Of a DNA stretch of 64,000 bases, positions 23,727 through 53,817 are shown one piece after another. The position numbers and the translations under genes are program-made. The notes beneath the pieces were generated by a model. The model searched no databases, had not been told where the DNA came from, and saw only the letters and a list, made by a program, of their open reading frames with translations. Each line of letters begins with the position of its first letter. The first letter of the stretch is position 1. Origin of the DNA: Eubacteriales bacterium (GTDB lineage: Bacteria > Bacillota > Clostridia > Oscillospirales > CAG-382); assembly GCA_045539625.1 (NCBI GenBank), contig JAZQFS010000042.1:171-64170 (forward strand), in the 5' to 3' direction.

Positions 23727-23731
23727 TTTAA

Positions 23732-30420: not shown

Positions 30421-30480
30421 ATCATTCACCTCGTATGATGGTATTATAGCATTTTATGGAAGGAATGTCAATTATGAGCA

Positions 30481-30512
30481 AAAAAAAGAGCAATACGTTT
30501 TTTGTATCGCTC
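30481..30512 (-). terminator. rho-independent terminator at the end of the EPS operon
   Basis: Minus strand: GAGCGATAC-n7-GTATTGCTC followed by TTTTTTT, 20 nt after the EAL gene stop (30533). Confidence 0.6.
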
Positions 30513-30532
30513 TCAGTAAACATTTCAAGTAT

Positions 30533-31453
30533 TTAATACTTCTCGATAAAAGACTCGCACTCTTCAAGAGGAAGGGGTTTAGAATAGTACCACCCCTGAA
30601 TAAAATCGCATTTAGACTTAGATACGAGGTCATTCTGTTCCTCTGTTTCAACACCTTCACAGATAACTGACAAATTAAGGTTATGGGCAAGTGCAATAAT
30701 ACCTGCGAACAGCTCCTTACCCCGCTGAGTTCCCGTTTTAAGAAGAATATCTCTGTCAATCTTAACTATATTTATGGGATAATCGCACAGATTTGCAAGA
30801 GAGGTATATCCGCTTCCAAGGTCATCAAGATAAATCTTAAATCCAAGCTCACGGCAAAGTCTGACATTTTTCTTAGCCGTTTCTCTATCCTTTTCTATTG
30901 CATCCTCTGTAATTTCAATGGCAAGCTTTGATTTATCAAAATCGTAGCTTTCTGATATAGCCTTCAGTTTATCAATACAATCTTCTTCAGAAAGTGTTAT
31001 CCGTGTAAAGTTACAGGAAATTGTAATATCCTTATACTCGGTATCCTTCCATTTTTCAAGCTGACGGCAGGCAAGGTCAAACATATAGAAATCGTGCTGA
31101 CTGATAAGTCCTGATGTTTCCATATGTCCGATATAATTACCCGGTCCCAAGATTCCCTTTTTAGGGTTATCCCATCTTGAAAGAGCTTCGGCAGAAACAA
31201 TTCTTTTTGTTTTATTATCCACAACAAACTGCAAGTACATCTTGAATTCATTGTTTCGGATTCCCTCCAAGATACTTTCTGCAGCATCGTTATCTTCGGT
31301 TTTGCCTGCATTATCGGCATTGTTCTCCTCAGACGGATTGATATTTTCAAAGCTTCTTTTTTCAATTCGTTTTATGCGAAAAAGTAACGATACGACAACA
31401 GCAGACTGCACAAAAAACACTAATATGAGTATAGTAAGAATTAACTCCTCCAT
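30533..31453 (-). CDS. membrane-anchored EAL-domain c-di-GMP phosphodiesterase
   Basis: One N-terminal TM segment. EAL signature residues are present: SAEALSRW, CNFT, EITE, DDLGSGYTSL, KIDR, EGVETEE, QGWYYSKP. Confidence 0.85.
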   Translation of the reverse strand: MEELILTILILVFFVQSAVVVSLLFRIKRIEKRSFENINPSEENNADNAGKTEDNDAAESILEGIRNNEFKMYLQFVVDNKTKRIVSAEALSRWDNPKKGILGPGNYIGHMETSGLISQHDFYMFDLACRQLEKWKDTEYKDITISCNFTRITLSEEDCIDKLKAISESYDFDKSKLAIEITEDAIEKDRETAKKNVRLCRELGFKIYLDDLGSGYTSLANLCDYPINIVKIDRDILLKTGTQRGKELFAGIIALAHNLNLSVICEGVETEEQNDLVSKSKCDFIQGWYYSKPLPLEECESFIEKY

Positions 31454-31500
31454 TTTCTGTACACCTCCAATTTTAATATATTATTTATACTTTCCAAATG

Positions 31501-32427
31501 CTATTGCTTCTTTTCTGCACTGTTTACACTGGAAGATATGATATATCTGGGTCTTCCCTTTATTTCTTCGTAAATCCGTGCAATATAGTAGCCGATTATA
31601 CCAAGACTTATCATAATTATACTACCGATAAAAATAGTGATTATGATTACCGTTGTCATACCTTCAAGTGCTCTGCCGATTATTTTATCAATCAGTGCCC
31701 ACACGCCGAAGATGACCGATATTGCAAGCATCACAACACCGAGACCCGTTACTATCTGCATTGGTGCAGTTGAAAACGAGGAAATATTGGAAACCGCATA
31801 CTTTATAAGCTTCCACGTTGACCACTTTGACTCGCCGTCAACTCGTTCTTCAACATCATATTCTACAGTAGCTGTTTTATAGCCAACCCAATAGGACAAT
31901 GCTCTGAAGAAGCCTCTTTCAGGCATACTGTTAATAACATCAACCACTTTTCTGTCAAGCAGCTTAAAGTCAGAGGAGTTTGCCATATCAAAGCCTGCCA
32001 TACGGCTGATTACAGAATAGAACATTTTTGCTGCTATTCCGTGAAGCATTTTTTCCCGTCCTCGGCTGCTTTTTATTCCCTCAACAACCTCATATCCCTG
32101 TTCCCACAGGCGGTACATCTCCACAATTTTCTTCACAGGGTGCTGAAGATCGCAGTCTATTACCACGGCACAGTCGCCTTTTACTTTGGAAAGACCTGCG
32201 GTTATGGCAGACTCTTTCCCGAAATTTCTTGAAAAATGAAGTCCCGAAACATTTTCTGCCTCTTTTGACAGTTCTGTTATCATTTCAAAGGTTTTATCCT
32301 GTGAACCGTCGTCAACAAAAATAATTTCGCAATCAATATTATTTTCCAAAAGGAGATTATGTATTTCGGAATATGCACGTTTTATACATTTTTCCTCATT
32401 ATAGGCGGGAATAATTACGGATAGCAT
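31501..32427 (-). CDS. GT2 polyprenyl-phosphate hexosyltransferase, GtrB/ArnC-like (two C-terminal TM helices)
   Basis: MLSVIIPAYNEEKCI...IIFVDDGSQDKT...VIDCDLQHP plus a C-terminal membrane hairpin, which is the GtrB-type architecture. Confidence 0.85.
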   Translation of the reverse strand: MLSVIIPAYNEEKCIKRAYSEIHNLLLENNIDCEIIFVDDGSQDKTFEMITELSKEAENVSGLHFSRNFGKESAITAGLSKVKGDCAVVIDCDLQHPVKKIVEMYRLWEQGYEVVEGIKSSRGREKMLHGIAAKMFYSVISRMAGFDMANSSDFKLLDRKVVDVINSMPERGFFRALSYWVGYKTATVEYDVEERVDGESKWSTWKLIKYAVSNISSFSTAPMQIVTGLGVVMLAISVIFGVWALIDKIIGRALEGMTTVIIITIFIGSIIMISLGIIGYYIARIYEEIKGRPRYIISSSVNSAEKKQ

Positions 32428-32436
32428 TTAATCACC

Positions 32437-33822
32437 TTACTGTTTTTCAAATAATGTTTCAAGCTTTGTGACAGGCATGGGACGGTAAAAATAATACCCC
32501 TGAAGCATATCACAGCCTGCTTCAACAACCGTTTTTCTGTGTTCCTCGGTTTCTATGCCTTCGCACAGCGTTTTAAAGCCAAGGTCATGGGCGGTGTTGA
32601 TAATATTTTTAAGAATCACAAATCCCGTTTTATTTATTGAATTCTGGGATATTGATTTATCAATTTTTACGATGTTAATGTCAAAGTCGGTAAGATCGCC
32701 AAAGCTTGTATATCCTTTGCCGAAATCGTCCAAGAGTATGCGCATGCCTTTTTCCCTCAGACGTTTAAGATTCTTTGTCATCACCGATTTTTCGTCATCA
32801 TTAAGGTCTTTATCCTCAAGAATTTCAACTGCAATACAAGAATAATCAACTCCGTATTTATCGACTATTCCCATAATACGGTCTGCAAGCTCCATATCGC
32901 AAAGAGTAAATCTTGAAAAGTTAATGGTATACACATACTTTGCACGTTTTGCTTTATCGCTTGATATCCATTTACAGTTTTTCTCAAAGATATAGTAATC
33001 GAATCTTTCATTAAGTCCCACGTTGTTAACCGCAGAAAGGAAATGCCGGGGAGACAGCACGCCTTCGGTTTCGGAGTTTAATCTTGACAAAACCTCAGCA
33101 CCTATAATCTTACCTGATTTTGCATCTATTATAGGTTGATACTCAAGAAAGAATCTGTTATTATCAATTTCGCTTTGAATATTGTTTTCAATTTTGATTT
33201 TTCTTTCAAAAGCCTTACCGCTTGTGTTATCCCACTGACAATGAAGCACGTCTTTATCCTCAGCCATACTGCAAGCCTGTTTTGCTCTTGACAGGGCGGT
33301 TTTGAAGTTAACCTCATTTGAGCTTGTGACATGGTATCCGAAGTTTACACGAACAGCATTTACTGCACCGTGTTTAACAAAGGCTTCGTTTATTTCCTCC
33401 ATACACTTATCTATGCAAGCTTCTGTTTTATCCGCCTCAAGATAGGTCAAAGCAACAAAGTTTTCACTTCCGTAAATTGATATCTCGCCGTCTGCCTTAA
33501 GGCTCAAATGGCTGAAAAGTATCTTTTTGATACGTTCATACATTCTTGATGCCTTTGATTCGGAATACAGTCTTTTCATACTGTCGAAAGAAACCGACAC
33601 ATATACAATACACCTTGTATTTCGAAGTGATGCCGCTTTCTCAAAATCGTTTTCTATTTTTCCTATACCGCAAAAGCTCTTTTCAGAAGTGCCTTTTGCA
33701 GTTTTTACGGATTTAAAAGTGAAGTACAGTCCCACAAGTCCCATTGCTATAAAAATCAAAACCAGTATAGTCAATATTACATAGGGAAATTGAAAAATCC
33801 GTGATTCAAAAAATTTCATCAT
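32437..33822 (-). CDS. membrane-anchored degenerate-GGDEF + EAL protein
   Basis: TM segment, then a GGDEF-fold region with YGSENF in place of GGDEF. The EAL domain has an EVL variant (GAEVLSRL) and intact INFS, EILED, DDFGKGYTSF, KIDK, EGIETEE and QGYYFYRP motifs. Confidence 0.8.
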   Translation of the reverse strand: MMKFFESRIFQFPYVILTILVLIFIAMGLVGLYFTFKSVKTAKGTSEKSFCGIGKIENDFEKAASLRNTRCIVYVSVSFDSMKRLYSESKASRMYERIKKILFSHLSLKADGEISIYGSENFVALTYLEADKTEACIDKCMEEINEAFVKHGAVNAVRVNFGYHVTSSNEVNFKTALSRAKQACSMAEDKDVLHCQWDNTSGKAFERKIKIENNIQSEIDNNRFFLEYQPIIDAKSGKIIGAEVLSRLNSETEGVLSPRHFLSAVNNVGLNERFDYYIFEKNCKWISSDKAKRAKYVYTINFSRFTLCDMELADRIMGIVDKYGVDYSCIAVEILEDKDLNDDEKSVMTKNLKRLREKGMRILLDDFGKGYTSFGDLTDFDINIVKIDKSISQNSINKTGFVILKNIINTAHDLGFKTLCEGIETEEHRKTVVEAGCDMLQGYYFYRPMPVTKLETLFEKQ

Positions 33823-33836
33823 TTATGCTCCCGATA

Positions 33837-34901
33837 TCAGTTTTCAAAAATTGGGAATTCATCTGTTCCCGCTGTTCTGCGAAGACCTCTTGCCTTTGCT
33901 GCGGCACAGCACTTTTCAATGTCTTTTTTTGCACTGTGCTTTCTTCTGACAATATCTCTTACAACAAACAAAGGATTGAATTTTAGCATTGCCCTTAAAA
34001 CATCCTTCTTTGATACGCCGCTTCTCTTATATTCTGCAAGAATTTCAATAAGCACATAGTTTACCGTTTCTTTATCTATTTTACCACTGCTTATTCTTTT
34101 GAACCATTTTGCAAATTCAAGATATTTTGAAACATCCGCCTTTTCTTTAAAATAAACACCGCTTATATAAAACTCTTTCATGCTCTCATCCATAGAAGAA
34201 GCAAGAGTACCATAATACTTATCCTGTATTTTAAGCACTTCGGTATGCTGTCTTTCAAGGGTTGTGCTTGTAATCTGCTTATCATGGAGGCGGTATATGA
34301 GAAGACATTCGTCAAGAATCTGCATTTTCTGTGAGTTCATTGCCATTCTTGTCCACAGTTCAAGGTCCTCGGTACAGGTAAGAGTAGTATCATAATTGTA
34401 TTTTTTCATAACCTCAGCTTTTGCAATAACACCGGGATGAAGAATGGGATTTGCCACAAAAAGCATTGCACGAACCGCTCTATCGTCGCACCGTCCGCCT
34501 GCTCCGCCTGACATATAAACTCCGTTTTTTACAGTCATAAATCTGCAGGAGGACAAAGCTACATCATTATGCTCCTCCATAAACTTAAACTGCTTTTCAA
34601 GTCTTTCGGGAAGACAGATATCATCGGCATCCATTCTTGCTATGTACTTTCCTTCAGAAAGAGAAATTGCCTTATTAAGGGATGTGGGAAGTCTTAGATT
34701 AACTTCATTATTATGTACCTTTATTCTTTCATCACTTTTGGACAGTTCACAAAGAATTTCAGCTGTAGAGTCTGTGGAGCAGTCGTTTATTATCACAAGC
34801 TCCCAGTCCTTAAAGGTCTGGTTTATGACGCTTTCTACAGCTTCTTTCAGATATGCTTCGCCGTTATATACGCTCATTATTACTGAAATTGCGGGTTTCA
34901 T
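33837..34901 (-). CDS. family 2 glycosyltransferase
   Basis: ISVIMSVYNGEAYLKEAVESVINQTFKDWELVIINDCSTDST...MDADD. Confidence 0.85.
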   Translation of the reverse strand: MKPAISVIMSVYNGEAYLKEAVESVINQTFKDWELVIINDCSTDSTAEILCELSKSDERIKVHNNEVNLRLPTSLNKAISLSEGKYIARMDADDICLPERLEKQFKFMEEHNDVALSSCRFMTVKNGVYMSGGAGGRCDDRAVRAMLFVANPILHPGVIAKAEVMKKYNYDTTLTCTEDLELWTRMAMNSQKMQILDECLLIYRLHDKQITSTTLERQHTEVLKIQDKYYGTLASSMDESMKEFYISGVYFKEKADVSKYLEFAKWFKRISSGKIDKETVNYVLIEILAEYKRSGVSKKDVLRAMLKFNPLFVVRDIVRRKHSAKKDIEKCCAAAKARGLRRTAGTDEFPIFEN

Positions 34902-34911
34902 GATGGGTGCT

Positions 34912-35931
34912 TCATCCTTTCTTGAGGACTCTTTTTATATTCTTACACATATTGAGAAAGTAAAACGCTGTTCTATAGCATTTTTTCTGCATTAAAAACA
35001 CGGTTATTTTACTTTTACGTGATATACTCTCAAATCTCGCTTTAGAGATTCTCTCTCCATGTATGGAGTTTTTGATATTTTCTTTAAGCGGCTTTATGCT
35101 TTTAAAATGGTTACCTTCTGCTGCCGATGCAAGTATTGCAAAGCACATAAAGCAGGAATAACGGCAAATTTGTTCTTCAAAATCAGGAATCACTGTGAAG
35201 TCATTTTTACCTATTTCATTTATCACGTTTTCCACAAGGAAAATCTGTTTAGTATTAAACTCCTTTGACAGTGAATCTTCTCTTACTGTATACAAATAAG
35301 TTTCTTTTTTACTGATATACACGCTTTTTGCCGCAAGATAGCAAGGCACAACACAGCAAAGGTCTTCGCCAAGAGAGATTGATTCACTGACACTAAGCTG
35401 AATTGGTGTGAGAAGTTCTCTTCTTACAGCCTTTCCCGACAAATAGTAGGAAACGTGATTCATATTCTTATCCATTAAAAGTCTCGGGAAAATATACTGC
35501 TGTATTCCCTTCTCGTCATAAAAGCCTTCTTCAAGACCGTCATTGGTGACATTTACCATTTTTTCGCCTTTTACCCATCTATATGAGAAGGATACAATAT
35601 CACATTTTGTTTCGCATATTTTATTATACGCACATTCAAGTGTATCGTTTTCTATAAGGTCATCGGAATCAAGGTTAAAAACGTATTCACCCACAGCTTC
35701 CTTTATCCCCGCTCTTCTTGCACTTGCAAGACCGCCGTTGCTCTTATGAACAACCTTTACACGGCTATCCTTTTCTTTATAGCTGTCACAGATTGCAGGA
35801 CAGTTATCGGGAGAGCCGTCATCCACAAGAACAAGTTCAAAATCTGAAAAGCTCTGTTTCAACACACTGTCAACACAAGCCTTCAAGTACTTTTCCACCT
35901 TATATACCGGAACTATTACCGAAAAAAACAT
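34912..35931 (-). CDS. family 2 glycosyltransferase
   Basis: FSVIVPVYKVEKYLKACVDSVLKQSFSDFELVLVDDGSPDN...LDSDD. Confidence 0.85.
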   Translation of the reverse strand: MFFSVIVPVYKVEKYLKACVDSVLKQSFSDFELVLVDDGSPDNCPAICDSYKEKDSRVKVVHKSNGGLASARRAGIKEAVGEYVFNLDSDDLIENDTLECAYNKICETKCDIVSFSYRWVKGEKMVNVTNDGLEEGFYDEKGIQQYIFPRLLMDKNMNHVSYYLSGKAVRRELLTPIQLSVSESISLGEDLCCVVPCYLAAKSVYISKKETYLYTVREDSLSKEFNTKQIFLVENVINEIGKNDFTVIPDFEEQICRYSCFMCFAILASAAEGNHFKSIKPLKENIKNSIHGERISKARFESISRKSKITVFLMQKKCYRTAFYFLNMCKNIKRVLKKG

Positions 35932-35940
35932 AGACTACTC

Positions 35941-37008
35941 CTATTTGCTTCTTAATTCAACCAGTAATTTCATAAGAAAATACAATCTGCACTTCATACA
36001 GTATGCAAACACTCTTTGTTTAAGCGGAAGTGTTGCAATGGGATACATTTTCAGAGCTTTTATACTTTGCTTATGGGTACAAATCTTTTTAAGCATTTTC
36101 CCTGTTTCAGAAAACTTGATACCGTTAACTTTACCGTACATTATTTCCTGTGTACAGATAACTCTGCACATAGCCTGCCAAAATCTGTTTATATAGATAC
36201 CGTATTCTTTTTCATCAATGTCGTTTTTAAAATTCTTTTCAACTTCACTCACAAAAACAAGGCTCTTTTCAAATCTATCCTGTTTACGGGATTTTGAAAT
36301 TGAATCTTCATTTCGGCAGTAATTGTAATATGCACCGTCTATTCCCGTAGCCTTACTTATATTGGAAATATAATCAATCATGAAAAGTGCATCCTCCGAA
36401 AGCATTTCACGTTCAGATTTGAAGGTTATTTTATTCTTCTTTATTATCTCAGTTCTGAAAAGATTTTTCCAGATACTCATGCCGTATTTACTGTCGTCGT
36501 CATCCCCCGGCAATGCACCTACAATACCCATTCTCAGTTTTTTCAGCATTTCGGGAGTATCAAAATGAGTATCCTTATCGAAGTAGCTTTTCCTGTCGCA
36601 GCCACCCTTTTCGCTGAACATATTTCCGTCAACAAATATTACCCCGGACATTACAAGGTCACTGTCATACTGTACTGCCTTATTATACAGAGTCTTAAAC
36701 ATACAAGGCTCTGCATAATCGTCGGAATCGCAAAAGCCGACGTATTCTCCGCTGACAAGCTCAAGTCCTGCATTACGTGCATAGCCTGCACCCTCATTCA
36801 CCTTATGTATAACCTTGATTCGGGAATCTTCCTTCGCCATTTTATTACACATTTCAAGTGAAGAATCGGTTGACGAATCATCAACAAGGATTATTTCAAT
36901 ATCACAAAGTGTCTGATTCTGCAACGAGCTTACACATCTTTCAAGATATTTTTCAGCATTGTACACGGGAACAACAATACTGACCTTAGGCTGTGACAAG
37001 TATCTCAC
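35941..37008 (-). CDS. family 2 glycosyltransferase
   Basis: VSIVVPVYNAEKYLERCVSSLQNQTLCDIEIILVDDSSTDSS...CDSDD. Confidence 0.85.
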   Translation of the reverse strand: MRYLSQPKVSIVVPVYNAEKYLERCVSSLQNQTLCDIEIILVDDSSTDSSLEMCNKMAKEDSRIKVIHKVNEGAGYARNAGLELVSGEYVGFCDSDDYAEPCMFKTLYNKAVQYDSDLVMSGVIFVDGNMFSEKGGCDRKSYFDKDTHFDTPEMLKKLRMGIVGALPGDDDDSKYGMSIWKNLFRTEIIKKNKITFKSEREMLSEDALFMIDYISNISKATGIDGAYYNYCRNEDSISKSRKQDRFEKSLVFVSEVEKNFKNDIDEKEYGIYINRFWQAMCRVICTQEIMYGKVNGIKFSETGKMLKKICTHKQSIKALKMYPIATLPLKQRVFAYCMKCRLYFLMKLLVELRSK

Positions 37009-38213
37009 CTCTTAGTTAATCTTTCATATTCCTCGAACAGAATATTGGCGTAGCTTTCTACGCTGAGAATATTATCTTTTTCGTTTTTACAGTTTTGCTC
37101 AAGGGTATTATAATAATCCTCATTTTCCAGTGTCGCTTTGATTTTTTCAGCAATTCCATGAGGTGTCGGTTCATTTACAAGAGTTCCTGTAACGCCGTCC
37201 TTCACAAGCTCTGCCATTCCTCCGCTGTTCATTGTGACAACGGGAACACCCATGGCATGTGCTTCGAGAATTGACAGCGGGCAGTTTTCATAGCATACCG
37301 ACGGAAGCAGCAGCACCTTTGCATTTCCGACAAGCTTTGTCAGTTCATCGCCGGTAAGAAATCCTGCAAGCTTTACATTGGGTATATCTTTAAGAACAGC
37401 CTCATCAGGACCGTTTCCTGCAACAACAAAGTTATATTGCGGCAAAAGCTTTGCCGTACCTGCTATATTTTCGATGCCCTTCTCCTTGGAAAGTCTGCCC
37501 ACATAAGCTATATAATCTTCCCTGTTCCGCTGTGAACCTGAAAACTTTTCTTTATTTATGAAATTATGTATTGTTTTGGTTTTACCTTTATAATACGTCT
37601 TTGAGGACAGCAGTTTATTCTCAAGAAAATTACTTGGGCACACGTACAAGTCAACTTTTTTATAAGTTTTAAGAAGTGAATAAAGCTTTGCTTCCACAAC
37701 TCCCAGTATACTTTTCACCAAAGAGCCGTGGATACATTTATTCTTGATACATCCGATATGCGAGCCCTTCAGGCACTTTTCGCAAGGGGTATTTTTATCA
37801 AAATTATAAAGAAGGTGATTGGGACAAATCATCTGATAGTCATGAACTGTCTGAACAAGAGGAACGCCCTTCTTCTTTACGCCATGAATAATTGAGGGAG
37901 TAAGCTGGAAGTTAATATTGTTCATATGGACGATATCAGGCTTAAAATCGTCTATTACCTGCATAATCTTCTTTTTTGCTTCAAAGGAATAGATAATTTT
38001 AAAGGGATAGAGAAATCTTGCAAGCCCTGTGGAATGAAAGTCCATATTTTTTGTATACAAGCCTTTGGCATTACCCACTGTATTTTTCTCATCGTACATT
38101 CCGAAAAACTGTACCTCATGCCCCATTTTCTGAAAACACTCAGCTAAGTATAACATATAGCTTTCGCTTCCGCCCCTTGGGTAGAGAAATTTATTAACCA
38201 TCAGAATTTTCAT
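37005..38213 (-). CDS. family 4 (GT-B) glycosyltransferase
   Basis: N-terminal MKILMVNKFLYPRGGSESYML and C-terminal Glycos_transf_1 pattern (LLLPSVCYENCPLSILEAHAMGVPVVT). 4-nt overlap with the next gene. Confidence 0.85.
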   Translation of the reverse strand: MKILMVNKFLYPRGGSESYMLYLAECFQKMGHEVQFFGMYDEKNTVGNAKGLYTKNMDFHSTGLARFLYPFKIIYSFEAKKKIMQVIDDFKPDIVHMNNINFQLTPSIIHGVKKKGVPLVQTVHDYQMICPNHLLYNFDKNTPCEKCLKGSHIGCIKNKCIHGSLVKSILGVVEAKLYSLLKTYKKVDLYVCPSNFLENKLLSSKTYYKGKTKTIHNFINKEKFSGSQRNREDYIAYVGRLSKEKGIENIAGTAKLLPQYNFVVAGNGPDEAVLKDIPNVKLAGFLTGDELTKLVGNAKVLLLPSVCYENCPLSILEAHAMGVPVVTMNSGGMAELVKDGVTGTLVNEPTPHGIAEKIKATLENEDYYNTLEQNCKNEKDNILSVESYANILFEEYERLTKR

Positions 38214-39529: not shown

Positions 39530-39550
39530 TCCCTGATTCTTGTTTATGTA

Positions 39551-41419: not shown

Positions 41420-41425
41420 CCTCCT

Positions 41426-42781: not shown

Positions 42782-42800
42782 ATTACATCCCCTCTCTAAA

Positions 42801-44048: not shown

Positions 44049-44050
44049 TT

Positions 44051-45169: not shown

Positions 45170-45190
45170 TTTAATCACTCCAAAATTCCA

Positions 45191-45871: not shown

Positions 45872-46740
45872 TATTCTTTAACACTTCTTTCTGATATATT
45901 TCGTACACATTCAAATTCGGTTTTCCGTCCCGAGGAAAAATAAAAATCCTTAAATACAACGTTTTTATCTGCCAACTGATATTCAAGCTTATCTATATAA
46001 CCGGGATGGAACAGAACCTCAACGTCTTTTCCTTGTTTTTCGGCAAGCTTTTCGTATTTCGGCAAAAGCTTTTTTACACGTTTTTCATCCATTTTTCCCG
46101 AAAACAGTATTCCGAAAAAGTACGCTGTTTTTATCTCATAATCTTTTGTATGCTTTTTATTGCACAGCCAAAGAAATTTCAATAGCAACTGTTTTATAAC
46201 ATTCACTGCGTTATAGGTAAAATACAGTGACTGTGTTGTAACAAAAGGCAACATCGGTTCTGCAGGTATTCTCACATAGTCCGCCTGTATTTTCTCATCC
46301 TTCAGCACTCTTACCAATGCCCTGAACACCGCAGGTATCATGTGTGTATGCTGATGGCTGTCGATGCAAAACGGAATATCTTTTGGCAAAATGCTTTGCC
46401 AATATCTGACCTGAGCCAAAATTTCTTTATACAGCTGTTCTTCAAGCTTTTTACCGCACAGGAAATTCAGCCTGAAAAGTCCTCCGAAGCGGTGCTTCAG
46501 ATTACCGTCCTTATGGGCAATCAGGTCTATTTCCTCAGGATTTGCCATGCACTTTCCTTCAACAAGATTAAGATGAAGTGAAAGTCTTACATTTTTTATT
46601 TCAGTAAGCTCCTTCAAATCAACTTCACCGAAATTTGGAAATACGCTTATTTTATTCAGTACCCCGTCACGAAGGCACTTTTTTATATTTGTCGATGTAT
46701 CTCTGCAAAGCCCGAAATCATCGGCACAGTAATAAATCAC
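45871..46740 (-). CDS. ChbG/YdjC-family carbohydrate deacetylase-like protein
   Basis: N-terminal MIYYCADDFGL and the mid-protein HQHTHM motif, at the right size for the YdjC family. Confidence 0.75.
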   Translation of the reverse strand: MIYYCADDFGLCRDTSTNIKKCLRDGVLNKISVFPNFGEVDLKELTEIKNVRLSLHLNLVEGKCMANPEEIDLIAHKDGNLKHRFGGLFRLNFLCGKKLEEQLYKEILAQVRYWQSILPKDIPFCIDSHQHTHMIPAVFRALVRVLKDEKIQADYVRIPAEPMLPFVTTQSLYFTYNAVNVIKQLLLKFLWLCNKKHTKDYEIKTAYFFGILFSGKMDEKRVKKLLPKYEKLAEKQGKDVEVLFHPGYIDKLEYQLADKNVVFKDFYFSSGRKTEFECVRNISERSVKE

Positions 46741-48308
46741 TTGTTTTCACACTCCGAGCCAAGCTTTATGACAATAACATCCTCAATTACGGCAATACAG
46801 CCTTTATCAGGCCATGTTTCCATAGTCTTAACGTCCTGTCTTTGGAGGAAGGACTTCTTTTCCTCACCGTAAACAAAGTTATAGTTCTTATCACAGTAAT
46901 CATTGAGAGCACTGCAAAGCACGCTTTGTCCCACCGTTTCATCATCGGCACGAAGTATATATCCGTCGGTGATGCCGGTAATATCGGGGGTGAGGTTTAC
47001 ACTATAGTCACGGCTGTTACTAAGCGCACCGACTACCAGAATTCTGCCGCACTCCTTTGTGCCGTCTGTCAGGTCTATACGGTCAGCAATACGCACAAGA
47101 GTGCCGTAGGACTTTTCGTAAGCCATCTGTGCTTTATGATAGCTGACATTTGCAATAACAATCTGATTTGCAACAAGCAAAGCAGATATTGCAAGCACGC
47201 ACCAGCACTTAACCGCACCTCTGTTTTCATTTGCTTCACTTCCTCTTTCATACACAAGGATAAAAAACAAATAAAACACACTGTAGCCCATAAGCATAAG
47301 GTTATGATAATCAACGCCCGCATTTACAAATGCAAGTGCCGATGCACCCCAAACAAGCATAACACCTATAACGGCAAGCAGCACAAGATTATGCGGTTTT
47401 TTATAAACCTTATTTTTTATAATGCTCTTTATGTAATATGCAAGTGTAAACAGCATGATTATGACATTAAGCACCACATACACGTTTACGCCGTCCGACA
47501 CGTCAAAAAAGCACTTAACAAAGGTTTCTTTAACGGTATAGAGTGATGCAAAAATATCAATTTCCGAAAGGGATGCCGCACTGTCAAGCCCCTGATATTC
47601 AAGAAGATTTGTTTTGCTGAGTGCAAGTACTGCTTTCATTACAACAGCATACAGAACAGCTCCTGCAAAACCCGACAGCAGTATCTGCATTGCCTTTTTG
47701 AAAAGCTTCTTAAAGGCTGCACCGCCGAACACCAGCTCATCTGTAAGGTGAAGCAAAACAAGCATTATTGTCACTGTTACATACGCCTGATATATGCCCA
47801 TGGACAGTGCAATAAGAGTTGCTGAAATCAGGTACTTCGGCTTTGGTCTTGTAAGAAAATATGCTGCCAGAACTGCAAGGAAGAATGATATACCGTATCC
47901 GTCTGCAACATAGTTATACATCATAACAGAGGTTACTGTGGGAAAGGAAACGGTAACTGCACCGATTATTGCAGCAGTTATCCTCTTTCTGACATCAAGC
48001 ATACCGCAGATGAACACAGCACCGAGAGCATGAAACACTATTGAAAGCAAACCGTTCAACAACGGCAAATCATAAAATGAACTGAAGGAGCACACAACAG
48101 GCAGAAACCATCTGCCAAGACCTATCATATTCTGGGAATCATATCTGAACACCAACGAGTCCCAGTTTGGCAGCCAGTTTGTTATTTTATAAAGATGTGC
48201 CGCAAGTCCTGTCAGCAATGCTGCAAAAAAGCACACTTTCCATTGGGGCAGGATACTTTTATTCAGTTTTTTCAATACTTTTTCAGGCAAAACTACCACT
48301 CCAGCCAT
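46737..48308 (-). CDS. GtrII-type (PF14264-like) membrane glucosyltransferase
   Basis: Polytopic membrane protein with the family-typical N-terminus (FFAALLTGLAAHLYKITNWLPNWDSLVFRYDSQNMIGLGRWFLP) and a soluble C-terminal part. Confidence 0.65.
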   Translation of the reverse strand: MAGVVVLPEKVLKKLNKSILPQWKVCFFAALLTGLAAHLYKITNWLPNWDSLVFRYDSQNMIGLGRWFLPVVCSFSSFYDLPLLNGLLSIVFHALGAVFICGMLDVRKRITAAIIGAVTVSFPTVTSVMMYNYVADGYGISFFLAVLAAYFLTRPKPKYLISATLIALSMGIYQAYVTVTIMLVLLHLTDELVFGGAAFKKLFKKAMQILLSGFAGAVLYAVVMKAVLALSKTNLLEYQGLDSAASLSEIDIFASLYTVKETFVKCFFDVSDGVNVYVVLNVIIMLFTLAYYIKSIIKNKVYKKPHNLVLLAVIGVMLVWGASALAFVNAGVDYHNLMLMGYSVFYLFFILVYERGSEANENRGAVKCWCVLAISALLVANQIVIANVSYHKAQMAYEKSYGTLVRIADRIDLTDGTKECGRILVVGALSNSRDYSVNLTPDITGITDGYILRADDETVGQSVLCSALNDYCDKNYNFVYGEEKKSFLQRQDVKTMETWPDKGCIAVIEDVIVIKLGSECENK

Positions 48309-49027
48309 TTGAATTTATGCAAAAATTTTCCGTACAGTTTATCGTACATTTTAACACCCACAATACGCTTTAAAAACAATGTGCGTTTTGATGTTTTGGA
48401 TGTCCACGAAGCACAAAAATGATGTATTGAATAGGTATTCTTTGTTATCTTTTTCTTTCCCGTATAATATTTCATAGGGCAAAGATAGTCTTCGGGAAGC
48501 ATGTGTATTCCCATAAAAACCTGATTCTGATTGGTTATATCCAAACCAAGCTTTTCCATGGTTTTGGTATTTCTGTCGGGACAGGGAGTCATATCAAAGC
48601 TTCCGTCCTCAAGGACAAAAGGGATATGGTCATAATCTGCCAAAAGTGCACCCACCAGCTCATTGCCCTTTTCACAGCCAAAGCCCAACCCCGTTGAAAT
48701 AACGCCGTTATCGTCAAAGCCCATATAGCCGGATTCTTTTACAAGCTCATCAATGGGTTTTATAATCTCAACATCTGTATCAAGGTATATTCCACCTTGG
48801 TCATAAAGTACCTTCAATCGTACGTAGTCACTGACAAATGCCCACTTTTTTGCTTCATAGGCTTGTCTTGCGTATTTATTATGACTGATGTCAAAGTTAT
48901 CCTCGTTATGGCATTCTATTTCATAATCGGGGCAATACTTCTGCCAGCTTTTTATACATTTTTGTGCAAGCGCGGGCATTTTGCCTCTACCGAACCAGCA
49001 GTAGTGTATTACCTTTGGAATACTCAT
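48293..49027 (-). CDS. family 32-type glycosyltransferase (OCH1/capsular sugar transferase, DXD)
   Basis: IPKVIHYCWFGRGKMP...WAFVSDYVRLKVLYDQGGIYLDTDVE. Confidence 0.75.
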   Translation of the reverse strand: MSIPKVIHYCWFGRGKMPALAQKCIKSWQKYCPDYEIECHNEDNFDISHNKYARQAYEAKKWAFVSDYVRLKVLYDQGGIYLDTDVEIIKPIDELVKESGYMGFDDNGVISTGLGFGCEKGNELVGALLADYDHIPFVLEDGSFDMTPCPDRNTKTMEKLGLDITNQNQVFMGIHMLPEDYLCPMKYYTGKKKITKNTYSIHHFCASWTSKTSKRTLFLKRIVGVKMYDKLYGKFLHKFKWLEW

Positions 49028-50529
49028 TTACTTTTCTTCCCCCTATAAAGCTCAAGAGCTGTTTTAAATGCTTTTCTGTTAAATACGAAATTTACAAGTA
49101 AATACAATCCCACAATCCATACGGCATTTGCCATTCCGTAAAGCAACAGCTTAAAAAACGGAGTATTACTGAAGGAGTCAACAAAGAACACCGACATAAT
49201 TACGGCAAAAACCGCTGTATTTACAAGGATTATTCTATATGTACAAAACGCACTTCTGCCCAGAATCTTTTTATTTGAGTGGTAAACCGTCACAACCGAA
49301 CGGTACACAAGTGCCGCAATTGTTCCCACAATAGCACCGCAGATACCCATATAGTAAATTGCGGCAACTGACACTGTTATATTTATAATCATTTCCCAAA
49401 GGGCGTGGCGGCGTGTCTTCTGAAAATCGCCTGAGTATTCAATAATTCCGTTTATGGGAAGTTTTGAAGCGGCAATCAAATTCATAACAACAAAAAGAAT
49501 CAGAAGAAGCGGATTTGTATACTGAGCATCCTCTATTCCGCCTGTATAAATCTGAATGAGCGGCAGAAGAAAAACTGCCATAAGAGTATAAACAATAAAG
49601 TTTGCGGTTATATAAAAGGTTTCGTAAACATTAAACAGCTTATCAAACTTTTCTCTGTCGGTATTGAACATCTGACCCAGTGCAAAGGTAAAAGAAGAAA
49701 CAACACTTGTTATAAAGTTCTGCACCTGTGAAAAGAAGATGTTATATATTGCATAAATACTTACCGCTTTAAAATCGCAGAGAACGGAAATAAGTATTAC
49801 ATCGGTATTATTGAACACCATTCCCGAAAGCTGATGCACAAGCACCGAGTTTTTCTGTGATATTGCTTGAAAATCAGGCTTTGCCTTAAGGTCCAGCCAC
49901 GTATATCTGCGTTTTGCGTAAAAATAAAGAAAGCCAAGCTGAAAAAGTGCAATAACGCAATACACAAGCTGTATGAGAACAAGGCTGTCTGTGAGAAACA
50001 GCACCAATATCTTACCTGCATTTGATGCAAGCTGTAAAAATGTTTCCGAGTTATTTATTACATATTTTCTGCCGTCAACCTCCATGAGGATTCTGTACTT
50101 TGACTGCACAAAATAGTTGAAAAGCGAAGGGATTGCATTTAATATTACCATAACAAACAGCACATTACTGTCTATTGATGTGGGAACAAAATATGCGTAC
50201 ACCACCCCAATTGCAAGGACTATTGCAGCATATATTACGCCTGTTCTTTTATAATAGGAATGGGTTGCTGAAAGAACGGCACTTGCACTTTCATAATCCT
50301 TCTCGCCTATTCTCTTATAAAGCGCCTGAGTTGTGGCAAGTCCTACGCCCGCTTCAAGAAGGCACAGGTATGTAAAAATCTGCTTTATTGTGGAAAGTAC
50401 ACCGTTTACCTCTGAGCCGAAGTTTTCAAGATACAGTCTCGGAAGCAGAAAGCTCAAGGATATGAGAACTACCTGATACACAAGTGACGATATCAGGTTA
50501 TGCTTTATTCTTGAATCCTTAAAAGCCAA
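49024..50529 (-). CDS. Wzx-type oligosaccharide flippase (MOP superfamily)
   Basis: About 12-14 TM segments. N-terminus NLISSLVYQVVLISLSFLLPRLYLENFGSEVNGV is typical of polysaccharide biosynthesis proteins. Confidence 0.75.
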   Translation of the reverse strand: MAFKDSRIKHNLISSLVYQVVLISLSFLLPRLYLENFGSEVNGVLSTIKQIFTYLCLLEAGVGLATTQALYKRIGEKDYESASAVLSATHSYYKRTGVIYAAIVLAIGVVYAYFVPTSIDSNVLFVMVILNAIPSLFNYFVQSKYRILMEVDGRKYVINNSETFLQLASNAGKILVLFLTDSLVLIQLVYCVIALFQLGFLYFYAKRRYTWLDLKAKPDFQAISQKNSVLVHQLSGMVFNNTDVILISVLCDFKAVSIYAIYNIFFSQVQNFITSVVSSFTFALGQMFNTDREKFDKLFNVYETFYITANFIVYTLMAVFLLPLIQIYTGGIEDAQYTNPLLLILFVVMNLIAASKLPINGIIEYSGDFQKTRRHALWEMIINITVSVAAIYYMGICGAIVGTIAALVYRSVVTVYHSNKKILGRSAFCTYRIILVNTAVFAVIMSVFFVDSFSNTPFFKLLLYGMANAVWIVGLYLLVNFVFNRKAFKTALELYRGKKSK

Positions 50530-50572
50530 GTTCTCACCTCCGAAAAGTACTTACTGCGTTTTACCGAAAACA

Positions 50573-51115
50573 TCACACACGGTTATCAATATATCCCTCG
50601 GTGGCATTTTCTCTTTCAATTATTCGTGCAGGATTTCCCACAACGATGCTATGGTCGGGTACATCAAAATTAACATAGGCAAGAGGTGCTATAAGAACAT
50701 CGCTGCCAATCTTTACGTTTCCCACAACAACCGCATTGGTTCCTATCCAGCAATTATCCAAAATCGTGGGAGCACCTTTTCTTTTGCCACGGTTTTCAGC
50801 ACCGATTGTAACACCTGTTCCAAGATTCACATTCTTACCCAAAACCGCATTTGGATTTATAATAACTCTTCCCGTATGTCCGATATAAAATCCTTCTCCG
50901 ATTTTTGTGCGTGCAGGAATCTGTATATGTGTCTTTGCCGAAAGGTGTCTAAGTCTCAACATATAGTAAAGCTTAAGAGGCAAAAAAGAGCATTTATTTG
51001 CCTTTCTGAACATTGCTATGTATTTAATTTCCAAGGGACGGAACACTCTTTTAAGGAAAGGCTCGCCTTTTTCACCGTAGTAGCGGTAAAGGTCTTTTTT
51101 GAAGATACTATTCAT
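50573..51115 (-). CDS. hexapeptide-repeat O-acetyltransferase (serine acetyltransferase-like)
   Basis: Left-handed beta-helix repeats (IGEGFYIGHTGRVIINPNAVLGKNVNLGTGVTIG...IGTNAVVVGNVKIGSDVLIAP). Confidence 0.8.
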   Translation of the reverse strand: MNSIFKKDLYRYYGEKGEPFLKRVFRPLEIKYIAMFRKANKCSFLPLKLYYMLRLRHLSAKTHIQIPARTKIGEGFYIGHTGRVIINPNAVLGKNVNLGTGVTIGAENRGKRKGAPTILDNCWIGTNAVVVGNVKIGSDVLIAPLAYVNFDVPDHSIVVGNPARIIERENATEGYIDNRV

Positions 51116-51124
51116 AATTCACAC

Positions 51125-51541
51125 TCATTTTTCTTTGGACTCAAGAAAAATCTTTCTTGTTACAAAATTGTACACAGGCACAATTACCATGGCAAGGAAT
51201 TTGATTACAAGGTAGTAAATCTTCGTAAAGCTTACGCCTACCCACAAAATGAATTGGTTAAGGCAAAGTCCACCGATGCTGAGAAGCACAAACAGCACAA
51301 ATTCACGAAGCTTACTTTGATTTTTGCTTTTAAACACAAAGCTCATACTTAATATGTAATTAACCACAACAGATGCAGTAAAGGAAAGTGCCGAAGCGAC
51401 AAGAACGTCAATATGCAAAAGCTCTTTCAGTGCAACAAGCACCCCTACATCCACAACTGCTGCAATAACGCCCACTACCGCAAACTTTATCAGCTGAAGA
51501 ATCACGTACAAACCCTCCGTTATTCTCTTGCGAATACCCAA
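51125..51541 (-). CDS. GtrA family membrane protein (lipid-linked sugar translocase-like)
   Basis: 138 aa, 4 TM. KFAVVGVIAAVVDVGVLVAL...SFTASVVVNYILSMSFVFKSK is the GtrA signature. Confidence 0.8.
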   Translation of the reverse strand: MGIRKRITEGLYVILQLIKFAVVGVIAAVVDVGVLVALKELLHIDVLVASALSFTASVVVNYILSMSFVFKSKNQSKLREFVLFVLLSIGGLCLNQFILWVGVSFTKIYYLVIKFLAMVIVPVYNFVTRKIFLESKEK

Positions 51542-53817
51542 AGAGTATCCTTTACATCACCGCTGTTATCATCAAGATTATGTACACTGAGAATTACTGT
51601 TTCTCCGTTTACCTTTTTATATGTAATTGACACGGCTTTACCGTCAAGCAACTGACGTTTTATTGCATCAATGTTCAGGAAAGTGGAAACTGCACGGTGA
51701 AAATCGGGATGTACATAGTCACTGATATACTTTTTCAGCACATTTGAAAAGCTTGTATCAGTTTCACCGCAGCCCAGATATGAAGGCATAAGAATTCCCT
51801 GTGCACTGTCGGTATCAAGAGACACTCTGTATATGCCGTTATAGTGTTCTTTAAGCACGGAAATCATTGTATCAATTTCTCTGATACCTGTCTTCATCTG
51901 GCTGAAATTCGTATTTGAATCATCAGAAACCGAAGGCTGTTCCTTATTCTGATAGTACAAAGCCTTTGCTTCATACATTCTTATCTCAGCTTCACGAACC
52001 ATTTCTTCGCAGTTGATATTACAGCTTCTGAAGGACATACCTATTGCAACAGTATAGCCTTTGGGTTTAAGCTGCTCTACAAAGGTCTCAATATTCTGTT
52101 TGACAACGTCATGGGATATTTTCTTTGCAAATACAAGAAATTCATCACCGCCCATGCGGTAAATGCTCTGTCCGTAGAACACTTCCTTCAAGGAGTTTGC
52201 AATAAAGATAAGCATTTCGTCACCTGCGGCGTGACCGTACTTATTATTTCTGATATGAAGCTCATTTACGTCAATATAAATGCACGAAAAATCTTCAGGA
52301 TTTTCTTCATCAAATACAAGAATATCCTTTTTATAAGCAACCCTGTTCATTGCTCCCGTAAGAGAGTCGGTTGTTGCGGCAAGTTCAGTTTTATTAAGGT
52401 GTTTCTTATTATAAATAGCAATTGAGAAGCATACTGCAACATCGCCGATAAGCTTTCTTATAAAGATGCTCTTTTTAGGGTTAATTGTACCGAGAATACT
52501 TACATGATTATTTTTATCAGAGATAATTGCAAAGGATATATCTCTGATATCATGCCCGGTAAGAAATTCGTAAAGTTCGGGATTTGTCTTTGCAAGATGT
52601 CCGTTAGGGAGAATCTGCATAAAGCCTGTCACAAGGCTGTCTGTATGCACATTTGCCGCATATCTGAACAACTCGCCTATTAAATATGTTTTTTCCTCGC
52701 CCTTTATCTCTTTTTCCTTTAACGAGGGTTTGATATAGTTATAGTACTCTCCATCGGTATCGGCGAAAAAGCAGGAACGTGCACTTGAAAATTCCTTTAT
52801 TCTCTTAAGAGCCGTATTTATATTTTCATGGTTTTGGTTAATCTCAAGGAGAAGGTGTCTTATTGAAGAAGACTCGGAATTCAACTTTGCCCTTTTCTTT
52901 TCATTCTTAAGTATAAGTTCAAGATATACAGCCATAATGAGAATAATCACTACAAAAACTATCATAACACTATATGAAATCTTATGTGTTTCCTCAAAAA
53001 CCTGTGTTTCATAACGGGCAAGCATGATTCCCCAGTCAAAATCTTCAATGGTAGAATAATGGATATACAAATCCTCACCGGTAATGATTGACTTAAATGA
53101 AGAAAATCCCTTATCGCCTTGTGCCATAGCTTCATAAGAATAGTCATCATTATAAACTCTATCCTTAAAGTCTGACAGTTCACCCGGTTTATCATCAAGG
53201 GTATCAATAACAAATTTTCCTGTTTCTTTATCATATACAAAAAGCTGTGCATTAAGCTCTTTTGCCATAGCATTATACTTTTCGCCTATAACATCAAGCT
53301 GAATTACACCGTAAAGAATTCCAACCGTTTCACCGTTTACTTTAATGGGCACAGCACTTCTGACAATATCTTTATCTGCGCCTGTAAGGTCGGGAATTCT
53401 GCCGCTTATATACTCTCCTCTTGCCGCTTCGTCTTGAAAGGAAATAATACCATTAAGATCAATTTCTCCCTTTTTGGTAACAAAAGTATTATCCGGATTA
53501 AGAATACCGATATTTGATATGAGACCTATGGGCTTGAAGGACTCAAACATAATATTATAGCTTTCCCCGTTAGTATGAAGCTTTGAGGCAAAGTTTGCCA
53601 TTGTTACAAGATTTTCTCTATCAGACTCCAGCTGCAGTTCAAGATGATCCTTAATTTGCTTTGTCTGGATGTGGAGCATCTCATAGGCATCATTTTCTGC
53701 CTTTATATAAAAAGACGTAACCATTGCCAAGAAAACGGCACATATCAATACCGTTGTAACAACGGTATAAACAATGTTATTTTGTCTTTGTTTTTTTCTT
53801 TCGTAGGTTATTGCCAA
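51520..53817 (-). CDS. sensor diguanylate cyclase: TM - Cache-like extracytoplasmic domain - TM - GAF/PAS-like - GGDEF (intact) - ~125-aa C-terminal domain of unknown function
   Basis: DSLTGAMNRVAYKKD...NNKYGHAAGDEMLIFIANSL...IYRMGGDEFLVFA (intact GGDEF; no RxxD I-site seen). Two TM segments flank a ~250-aa domain. TTG start at 53817. Confidence 0.85.
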   Translation of the reverse strand: MAITYERKKQRQNNIVYTVVTTVLICAVFLAMVTSFYIKAENDAYEMLHIQTKQIKDHLELQLESDRENLVTMANFASKLHTNGESYNIMFESFKPIGLISNIGILNPDNTFVTKKGEIDLNGIISFQDEAARGEYISGRIPDLTGADKDIVRSAVPIKVNGETVGILYGVIQLDVIGEKYNAMAKELNAQLFVYDKETGKFVIDTLDDKPGELSDFKDRVYNDDYSYEAMAQGDKGFSSFKSIITGEDLYIHYSTIEDFDWGIMLARYETQVFEETHKISYSVMIVFVVIILIMAVYLELILKNEKKRAKLNSESSSIRHLLLEINQNHENINTALKRIKEFSSARSCFFADTDGEYYNYIKPSLKEKEIKGEEKTYLIGELFRYAANVHTDSLVTGFMQILPNGHLAKTNPELYEFLTGHDIRDISFAIISDKNNHVSILGTINPKKSIFIRKLIGDVAVCFSIAIYNKKHLNKTELAATTDSLTGAMNRVAYKKDILVFDEENPEDFSCIYIDVNELHIRNNKYGHAAGDEMLIFIANSLKEVFYGQSIYRMGGDEFLVFAKKISHDVVKQNIETFVEQLKPKGYTVAIGMSFRSCNINCEEMVREAEIRMYEAKALYYQNKEQPSVSDDSNTNFSQMKTGIREIDTMISVLKEHYNGIYRVSLDTDSAQGILMPSYLGCGETDTSFSNVLKKYISDYVHPDFHRAVSTFLNIDAIKRQLLDGKAVSITYKKVNGETVILSVHNLDDNSGDVKDTLWVFARE

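Follow-up and report, generated by a model that had tools for sequence, protein, structure and literature searches.

A degenerate GGDEF domain in the kinase position of a co-polymerase-like protein suggests a new switch for Wzy-dependent polysaccharide assembly in gut Clostridia

How Wzy polymerases and their polysaccharide co-polymerases (PCPs) are switched and how the chain length of their products is set is poorly understood, and the only established cytoplasmic input to Wzy co-polymerases is, to our knowledge, tyrosine phosphorylation. A block of 20 genes (g01 to g20) from an uncultured gut Clostridium (contig JAZQFS010000042.1 of assembly GCA_045539625.1) raises the question whether a nucleotide messenger could act at this step. 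The block lies on the minus strand of the 64,000-nt stretch of DNA analyzed here (hereafter the window) and brings genes for a Wzy-dependent surface polysaccharide or exopolysaccharide (EPS) together with enzymes of cyclic di-GMP (c-di-GMP) turnover. An earlier note on this DNA had described it as a Wzx/Wzy-type operon with its own module for making, breaking and sensing c-di-GMP. The strongest new element lies beyond these enzymes of the operon, in a widespread protein family, represented by g12, in which a PCP-like ectodomain is joined to a degenerate GGDEF domain (PCP-GGDEF), together with the conserved gene quartet to which this family belongs. The presence of a dead cyclase domain in place of a tyrosine kinase suggests a new on/off switch for the assembly of sugar polymers. 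The quartet consists of the following genes:

42801..44048, minus strand: g10, metallophosphoesterase with a single transmembrane (TM) segment, YaeI/LpxG-like (Pfam Metallophos), first gene of the quartet
41426..42826, minus strand: g11, PCP', built of a TM segment, a ~380-aa ectodomain and a TM segment, without a cytoplasmic domain; paralogue of the g12 ectodomain
39551..41419, minus strand: g12, PCP-GGDEF, GGDEF match at E=7e-12 with the degenerate motif GNGSF
38210..39529, minus strand: g13, Wzy-type polymerase (Wzy_C at 33.3 bits, cut-off 31.7; at least 8 TM segments)

The AlphaFold model of g12 (pLDDT 81.5) comprises a first TM segment (residues 6-36), an alpha/beta base with long helical hairpins (~39-430), a second TM segment (434-468) and a GGDEF fold. 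By topology and predicted secondary structure this resembles the layout of Wzc, with the dead cyclase in the position of the kinase. The ectodomains of g11 and g12 share 22% identity over 316 aa (E=4e-6), and the true start of g11 is probably the ATG at 42781 (451 aa), because its orthologues are 451 aa long. Pfam searches at E<=10 returned nothing for g11, the g12 ectodomain, the C-terminus of g01 or the N-terminus of g10; exact-sequence look-ups of g12 gave no match, and a PDB sequence search with the g12 family retrieved GGDEF domains only. Among 67 family members, Pfam detected GGDEF in 62 and Wzz in 15 (best E=3e-5).

In total, more than 1,100 relatives of g12 were found. A search with the ectodomain yielded 684 clusters (50% identity) at E<=1e-3 and 334 at E<=1e-10, and these clusters form two length classes of ~600-700 aa and ~450-480 aa. 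Motif analysis was carried out on the 72 of 76 long representatives that aligned across the GGDEF motif. The motif is degenerate in every one of them (72/72), and 60 carry YN at the first two positions, resulting in the signature YNGxGQF. Other parts of the cytoplasmic region are well conserved across 67 diverse members: G457-R458-x-x-[DE]461, located right after the second TM segment (window ~40037-40051), reaches 94-97%, and further conserved residues are N477-R478, D482, Y543-N544 and R600. N511 is conserved in 72% and R516 in 81%; 97% of the members have D or N at position 520. A profile alignment to solved cyclases pairs N511 and D520 with the Asn and Asp through which active cyclases contact their substrate (D..N..GH..GD block), which we take to be the guanine contacts N335 and D344 of PleD. 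Between close orthologues, the degenerate GGDEF domain is conserved like the ectodomain (78% vs 80%), and it therefore appears to be functional, though not as a cyclase.

The G-R-x-x-[D/E] element resembles an RxxD motif, lies outside the canonical I-site and may represent either a nucleotide contact or a mere membrane-anchor feature. A further feature of the g12 ectodomain, a cysteine-rich insert (CxGxCxxxCxxSxxTC; residues ~355-375, window ~40295-40357), is restricted to the closer subfamily and absent in distant members. No description of PCP-GGDEF or Wzz-GGDEF fusions, of a c-di-GMP-binding Wzc or of the g10-g13 quartet was found in the literature, the coverage of which was incomplete, and a prior description may exist.

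In order to see the quartet in a wider context, we sampled the neighbourhoods of ten family loci outside the clade of the window (32-71% identity), including one from a cultured Lacrimispora and one from an Acetatifactor metagenome-assembled genome (MAG). The series metallophosphoesterase, PCP' (~450-467 aa), PCP-GGDEF and Wzy was present in 10/10 loci, and in each of the ten the metallophosphoesterase adjoins PCP'. Two loci (L101, L103) have a protein of Wzy-like size without a Pfam match after PCP-GGDEF, and L104 carries its phosphoesterase as a fusion behind a GT4 glycosyltransferase (GT) domain. Most of the sampled loci also encode a priming phosphoglycosyltransferase (PGT), a GT4 and two or three GT2 enzymes alongside the quartet; neither a bacterial tyrosine kinase (BY-kinase) nor a cognate phosphotyrosine phosphatase was found in any of the ten. 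Judging from these neighbourhoods, PCP-GGDEF is a generic part of this type of machine.

In the phosphoesterase, a basic stretch and one TM segment always precede the catalytic domain. Because of this arrangement, and following the positive-inside rule, the catalytic domain of g10 is probably extracytoplasmic. The clade of the window carries GNNE in place of GNHE in this protein, and a PDB sequence search with g10 was empty. An optional N-terminal cytoplasmic domain of g10 (~100 aa) has no family assignment.

Enzymes of c-di-GMP turnover were detected near the quartet in only two of the ten loci. L099 (71% identity) is headed by an EAL gene and L100 (50% identity) by an intact cyclase of another type (7TM, RYGGDEF). 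Cyclases and phosphodiesterases have thus been recruited at least twice and in different architectures, which argues for a coupling of the system to c-di-GMP but is no proof of g12 as the sensor. Several distant loci (L084, L085, L086, L100, L102) contain genes for a PP-binding protein, an AMP-binding ligase and Acyl_transf_3, several of them with a heptose-type GHMP kinase/NTP-transferase/SIS set and WecG. These gene contents are a hint that the family may make acylated, wall-associated glycopolymers.

In the window itself, c-di-GMP turnover is represented by three proteins:

51520..53817, minus strand: g01, membrane sensor diguanylate cyclase (GGDEF E=1e-16; weak dCache_1 match of 32 bits, below its cut-off)
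32437..33822, minus strand: g18, TM-anchored phosphodiesterase with a degenerate GGDEF (GSENF) and an EAL domain (EAL E=2e-57)
30533..31453, minus strand: g20, TM-anchored stand-alone EAL phosphodiesterase (EAL E=2e-59)

Together with g12, all four c-di-GMP-related proteins are membrane-anchored. From its N-terminus, g01 is composed of a TM segment, a Cache-like ectodomain, a second TM segment, ~170 aa, the GGDEF domain (RMGGDEF) and a C-terminus of 146 aa. In its substrate and metal motifs (TDSLTGAMNR, DVNELHIRNNKYGHAAGDE, RMGGDEF), both DxLT..NR and D..N..GH..GD are intact, and all of these motifs are kept in 9/9 orthologues. The EAL domains of g18 and g20 retain E(A/V)L, N, ExxE, DDxGxGY, KxD, EG(V/I)E and QG, and these catalytic motifs are conserved in 66 orthologues of g18 and 32 orthologues of g20. 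Based on this conservation, g01, g18 and g20 are under purifying selection as enzymes. The picture of an operon that is headed by an intact cyclase and ends with phosphodiesterases was therefore borne out, and since all three sets of motifs are intact and conserved in orthologues, making and breaking of c-di-GMP by the operon's products are well supported as predictions.

Profile searches, which had been proposed as a check of the GGDEF and EAL calls, upheld those for g01, g12, g20 and the EAL domain of g18. For the N-terminal GGDEF domain of g18, they gave only a sub-threshold Pfam match (E=0.004, 17 bits), and the simpler reading of this domain is that of a regulatory appendage, as is usual in GGDEF-EAL phosphodiesterases, and not that of a receptor. 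An RxxD I-site is absent from g01, g18 and g20. Two regions of g01, residues ~303-480 between the second TM segment and the GGDEF domain and residues ~620-765 (window 51523-51960), belong to no Pfam family.

The remaining 13 genes of the block are predicted to assemble and decorate the polysaccharide:

51125..51541, minus strand: g02, GtrA-family 4-TM protein, candidate undecaprenyl-phosphate-sugar (Und-P-sugar) flippase (GtrA E=4e-25)
50573..51115, minus strand: g03, hexapeptide-repeat acetyltransferase (Pfam Hexapep)
49024..50529, minus strand: g04, MOP-superfamily flippase (Wzx role) of a family not in Pfam (fold match of the AlphaFold model)
48293..49027, minus strand: g05, GT32-type glycosyltransferase with DXD (Pfam Gly_transf_sug)
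46737..48308, minus strand: g06, GtrII-type polytopic glucosyltransferase acting outside the membrane (Glucos_trans_II E=5e-46; at least 8 TM segments)
45871..46740, minus strand: g07, YdjC-like carbohydrate deacetylase (Pfam YdjC)
45191..45871, minus strand: g08, small priming polyprenyl-phosphate sugar-phosphate transferase (Bac_transf E=4e-65; TIGR03025 E=2e-76)
44051..45178, minus strand: g09, GT4 glycosyltransferase of the DUF1972 type (Pfam)
37005..38213, minus strand: g14, GT4 glycosyltransferase (Pfam)
35941..37008, minus strand: g15, soluble GT2 glycosyltransferase (Pfam; no TM segments)
34912..35931, minus strand: g16, soluble GT2 glycosyltransferase (Pfam; no TM segments)
33837..34901, minus strand: g17, soluble GT2 glycosyltransferase (Pfam; no TM segments)
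31501..32427, minus strand: g19, GtrB-like GT2 with two C-terminal TM segments, Und-P-sugar synthase (Pfam GT2)

Overall, Pfam supports 17/20 of the gene labels given before, and NCBIfam agrees for most. The label Wzx for g04 is borne out by fold only. This protein had no Pfam match even at E<=10, a PDB sequence search with its family was also empty, and its relatives carry the annotation "hypothetical". Its AlphaFold model (pLDDT 79.6, pTM 0.80) matches MurJ (TM-score 0.64-0.68) and WzxE (TM-score 0.58/0.67-0.69), and by this predicted fold g04 is a MOP flippase. Distant loci encode either a 507-515-aa protein without a Pfam match, which in L084 shows 23% identity to g04 along 78% of its length, or a Polysacc_synt protein. 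With a priming transferase, six GTs, a Wzy and a flippase of MurJ/WzxE fold, the predicted gene functions amount to a Wzy-dependent pathway, and the Wzx/Wzy-type chemistry read earlier from the locus agrees with the profiles of g08 and g13 and the fold of g04. The most conserved gene of the operon is g08, with 80-97% identity in related loci (tblastn).

A synthase-type mechanism (Bcs, Pel, Alg, Pga, Pss, Nfr) was rejected because the GT2 enzymes g15-g17 are soluble and there was no PilZ or MshEN match. Based on their families, g02, g19 and g06 form a complete Gtr module for the addition of sugar outside the membrane. The earlier note had labelled these three genes correctly but listed them separately, and the module was overlooked, as was the absence of BY-kinase and LCP genes: in the window, of which 43/49 non-shadow open reading frames (ORFs) of at least 150 aa were interpretable, we found no CpsB-type phosphatase, no LCP ligase and no BY-kinase.

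The limits of the block are marked by three signals:

53922..53950, minus strand: promoter-like site TTGATT-17 nt-(TG)TATACT upstream of g01 (9/12 matches plus TG extension; consensus match only)
54069..54085, minus strand: terminator-like hairpin (7-bp stem, 5 GC pairs, T-run) ending the upstream unit of a GGGtGRT gene and an integrase fragment
30486..30514, minus strand: intrinsic terminator of the operon (11-bp stem and U-run, -14.4 kcal/mol, z = -3.5 vs shuffles)

Between them, 20 minus-strand ORFs of the same direction fill 53817..30533, their coordinates matching the earlier listing exactly. Intergenic distances from g01 to g20 range from -26 to +47 nt, with overlapping stop and start codons at several junctions. 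No convincing internal terminator was found within the operon, and promoter-like matches inside it are not more frequent than in shuffled sequence. At the level of the DNA, one compact transcription-unit-like block is thus supported. The co-directional arrangement with short gaps and overlaps, the candidate promoter at ~53.9 kb and the strong 3' terminator had all been seen before and were recovered here. The same holds for the AT-richness, which had been judged by eye and is real, given a GC content of 0.386 (38.6%) in the operon vs 0.430 in the left and 0.437 in the right flank.

Next to its architecture, we considered the conservation of the operon. A scan of species-representative genomes with a 9-sequence g12 alignment gave 228 relatives, and the best 80 of these 228 entered the locus comparison. 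All 80 are uncultured Clostridia MAGs (goat, sheep, deer, buffalo, chicken and human gut), with Oscillospiraceae, Acutalibacteraceae, Congzhengia and Ca. Aphodoplasma among their labels. At least 80 species retain the gene order g02..g20, with amino-acid identities of 47-99% (tblastn with all 20 proteins), and the operon is therefore no single-genome curiosity; strain-specific island cargo was rejected as the main story, as the operon recurs in these species. Orthologues of g18 occur in 66 related loci and orthologues of g20 (>=60% identity) in 36 of the 61 loci reaching that far, and g02, g03, g06, g07, g19 and g20 are present in some species and absent in others. As the 10-kb flanks of most of the best-80 loci do not reach g01, a separate metagenome scan was made with this protein (12 loci). 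In 7/12 of them, a g01 orthologue (59-71% identity) directly heads g02, g03, g04 and the following genes. A short fragment of a second GGDEF-like gene (31% identity to g01 across 19% of its length) is found in L087 (10001-10489), ~0.6 kb upstream of the head cyclase.

From its conserved gene order, the operon appears to be a stable unit of a family-level clade. A c-di-GMP circuit within a Wzx/Wzy operon had been called unusual; the system is not confined to this genome, and its PCP-GGDEF protein belongs to a far wider family.

In this genome, the block is bracketed by a 0.5-kb direct repeat:

54133..54631, minus strand: proximal copy (3' end of the intact GGGtGRT gene, hairpin, 37-codon integrase fragment)
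29808..30286, minus strand: distal copy (orphan 3' fragment of GGGtGRT, hairpin, frameshifted integrase fragment)
30287..30480, minus strand: decayed remnant of an MBL-fold gene (promoter and 5' end; intact paralogue at 22754..21123), joined to the distal GGGtGRT fragment at the microhomology GGCGGCGG

The two copies of the repeat show 94% identity over 226 nt and then 73% over 110 nt. The repeat begins exactly at the codons for the GGGTGRT motif and corresponds to the last 226 nt of the GGGtGRT-family gene, followed by a hairpin and by ~37 N-terminal codons of a phage-type integrase, which is cut short in both copies. The earlier note had recognized the AT-rich block and overlooked this bracketing repeat with its integrase fragments. 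Direct repeats at the 3' end of a gene and a 5-point drop in GC are traits of genomic islands; both integrase copies are short fragments. The arrangement looks like a footprint left by a single crossover or by illegitimate recombination of a 24.3-kb segment, with a repeat that resembles a single-crossover footprint more than an att site, and this fits the lower GC content. The junction is common only to the sister genome L004; in another species a different gene lies downstream of the operon. The MBL-fold remnant (30287-30480 compared with 22445-22860) derives from the promoter (a perfect TTGACA-17-TATAAT with TG) and the first ~60 codons of 22754..21123 in decayed form; it is frameshifted, and its fusion to the orphan GGGtGRT fragment creates a chimeric ORF (30367..30062).

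Just downstream of the operon, window positions 12302-29488 hold giant surface proteins and a WbsX-type gene:

within 12302-29488: 1856-aa protein with Big_2 and Listeria-Bacteroides repeats
within 12302-29488: 1603-aa protein with SLH and a WbsX-like domain
within 12302-29488: 747-aa protein without a family
within 12302-29488: 370-aa WbsX-type glycosyltransferase

The cell surface is the theme of the whole neighbourhood. On the other side of the operon, an ORF without a Pfam match (61431..62411) contains a 24-nt unit repeated six times in tandem (61467-61658; 72-nt register).

How could these parts work together? In the mechanism we propose, g08 and the glycosyltransferases g05, g09 and g14-g17 would build the repeat unit on undecaprenyl phosphate, the acetyltransferase g03 and the deacetylase g07 would modify it, g04 would flip it across the membrane and g13 would polymerize it. 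The products of g10, g11, g12 and g13 would form the core for polymerization and export, in which g10 might act on a pyrophosphate-linked intermediate outside the membrane. An external cue sensed by the Cache-like ectodomain of g01 would raise c-di-GMP locally. The degenerate GGDEF domain of g12, in the position held by the BY-kinase of Wzc, may then read c-di-GMP (or GTP), with the juxtamembrane G-R-x-x-D and the retained guanine-contact Asn and Asp as candidate contacts. Nucleotide-bound g12 would alter the complex of g11, g12 and g13 and thereby start polymerization, gate it or tune chain length, and g18 and g20 would remove c-di-GMP and reset the system.

A number of results weigh against this proposal. 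A fold search with full-length g12 listed GGDEF matches throughout its top 50 and thus gave no structural confirmation of the PCP fold; the putative assignment of the ectodomains of g11 and g12 as PCP-like draws on weak Wzz matches in relatives, on the topology and on the predicted secondary structure, the latter two of which fit. The canonical I-site, an RxxD five residues before the GGDEF motif, reads KSKT in g12 and KADG in g18 and is unconserved across the g12 family. Such a site in g01, g12 or g18 was rejected after motif inspection and family alignment. The family has further lost the metal-binding Asp and the acidic residues of GG(D/E)EF. Sensing had previously been assigned to the two degenerate GGDEF domains as candidate receptors; as neither has a canonical RxxD I-site, this part of the module is unproven. 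Other known sensors were likewise absent: no PilZ or MshEN domain was found in the operon or the scanned window ORFs, and a c-di-GMP riboswitch (GEMM-I/GEMM-II) in the leader was rejected, with no Rfam match at the gathering threshold in the whole window and none at E<=1 in 53600-54500. Moreover, 7/8 of the most distant family loci (32-50% identity) have no cyclase or phosphodiesterase within 10 kb, and these enzymes therefore represent a lineage add-on and not a fixed part of the machine. In view of both sides, we lean slightly towards a Wzy-dependent surface polysaccharide or EPS operon under dedicated local c-di-GMP control. That g12 specifically is the c-di-GMP effector is a possibility on which we would not bet. 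The broadest version is more doubtful again, namely that PCP-GGDEF is a new class of second-messenger effector which binds c-di-GMP or GTP at a non-canonical site (G-R-x-x-D and the degenerate A-site), replaces the BY-kinase cycle and, with PCP' and the metallophosphoesterase, defines a new core for Wzy-dependent assembly and export that is widespread in gut Clostridia.

The same absence of an I-site and of catalytic acidic residues, together with the seven of the eight most distant loci that lack neighbouring enzymes, would be expected if c-di-GMP controlled the polymer through another effector and the GGDEF domain of g12 were a nucleotide-blind scaffold or an oligomerization module for GTP or another ligand. 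Candidates for such an effector are a GT (cf. HfsJ/HfsK), the C-terminal regions of the GT2 enzymes or a factor encoded elsewhere, and c-di-GMP effectors of Wzy pathways can defy sequence prediction, as HfsK, an acyltransferase, illustrates (PMC5362036). This alternative leaves aside that two different types of cyclase were independently recruited beside PCP-GGDEF systems, that G-R-x-x-D and the guanine-contact Asn and Asp are conserved in the g12 family and that no other domain of the operon resembles a known c-di-GMP binder; we regard it as rather unlikely. Information might also flow in the reverse direction, if g12 paired with the GGDEF domain of g01 or docked on g18 and reported the state of polymerization, with the enzymes mainly feeding a cell-wide pool (motility, adhesion) instead of gating this polymer. 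GGDEF domains do act as dimers, all partners are membrane-anchored, g01 is free of product-inhibition I-site residues, and many species do without g20 and sometimes also without g19. Yet heterodimers of g12 with g01 or g18 are a supposition only, and the many loci with PCP-GGDEF and no nearby cyclase would be left unexplained, which makes this reading improbable.

More improbable still is that the block is no functional unit at all and that, on several transcripts, c-di-GMP genes are merely parked beside a variable polysaccharide cassette that moves horizontally. Such a history would suit the AT-richness, the bracketing repeats and pseudogene fragments, the internal promoter-like matches (which do not exceed the level of shuffled sequence) and the variable presence of g02, g03, g06, g07, g19 and g20 between species. 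It is countered by gaps of no more than 47 nt, by the several overlapping stop and start codons, by the lack of a convincing internal terminator and by the positions of cyclase at the head and EAL at the tail, which persist across dozens of species although protein identity has fallen to 50-85%.

A co-polymerase family with a degenerate GGDEF domain exchanged for the kinase offers a concrete, testable route through which a nucleotide messenger could directly influence Wzy-dependent assembly, and in some lineages this family shares an operon with a sensor cyclase and two phosphodiesterases. It is abundant in uncultured Clostridia of the ruminant, poultry and human gut, where surface glycans shape the interactions with host and phages, and cultured relatives (Lacrimispora, genus Congzhengia) make experiments feasible.

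Comparing the operon to known systems, the degenerate-GGDEF protein itself has precedents. In Listeria monocytogenes, the Pss system requires the membrane protein PssE, whose degenerate GGDEF domain binds c-di-GMP (PMC4125290). The Listeria pssA-E operon and YdaJKLMN of Bacillus subtilis (with YdaK) are likewise Firmicute EPS operons with such a membrane protein. However, both are synthase-dependent with a processive GT2, whereas the operon described here is Wzy-dependent and has its degenerate GGDEF domain fused to a PCP. Receptors of the PelD, PssE and YdaK type depend on the I-site: PssE binds through a canonical RxxD, located five residues ahead of its degenerate motif, that is absent from the operon described here, and the cyclase and phosphodiesterase genes of Listeria are located in another operon and not in the same one as here. 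A specific membrane cyclase beside a polysaccharide machine, with phosphodiesterases as the sink, is also found in the pairs NfrB/DgcJ and BcsA/DgcC of Escherichia coli (PMC8669469). These are synthase-type GTs with MshEN or PilZ sensors, whereas the system of the window is Wzy-dependent and encodes the enzymes in the operon.

A further comparison is with the holdfast (Hfs) of Caulobacter. Hug et al. 2017 reportedly described HfsJ as a c-di-GMP-controlled enzyme of this pathway. As here, the polymer is of the Wzx/Wzy type, and enzymes of its assembly are under post-translational control by c-di-GMP (HfsK, PMC5362036). In the holdfast system, though, the effectors are an acyltransferase and a GT instead of a co-polymerase, the hfs locus has no cyclase or phosphodiesterase genes, and the envelope is Gram-negative. 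For decoration, the operon shares GtrA-, GtrB- and GtrII-like genes (g02, g19, g06) with the Gtr serotype-conversion systems of Shigella and Salmonella and with Gram-positive Und-P-sugar systems; here, a biosynthetic operon has them scattered along its length and not grouped as a three-gene phage cassette, and some species have lost them.

Parallels also exist with Gram-positive Wzy-dependent capsule/EPS loci of the CpsA-D type (CpsC/CpsD, PCP-2b with BY-kinase) and with Gram-negative Wzc (PCP-2a), which share with the operon a priming PGT, several GTs, a MOP flippase and Wzy; their two-TM co-polymerase, whose external helical domain is large, has a putative counterpart in g12. Like Wzc, g12 also has a cytoplasmic regulatory domain after its second TM segment. 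In contrast to these systems, the operon has no BY-kinase (CpsD or the Wzc C-terminus), CpsB/Wzb phosphatase or LCP ligase, and the ectodomains of g11 and g12 (~400 aa) far exceed that of CpsC in size. Where the known systems carry a kinase, the cytoplasmic domain of g12 is a degenerate GGDEF domain, and Wzy comes with a pair of PCP-like paralogues (g11, g12) and with a membrane metallophosphoesterase as an obligatory partner.

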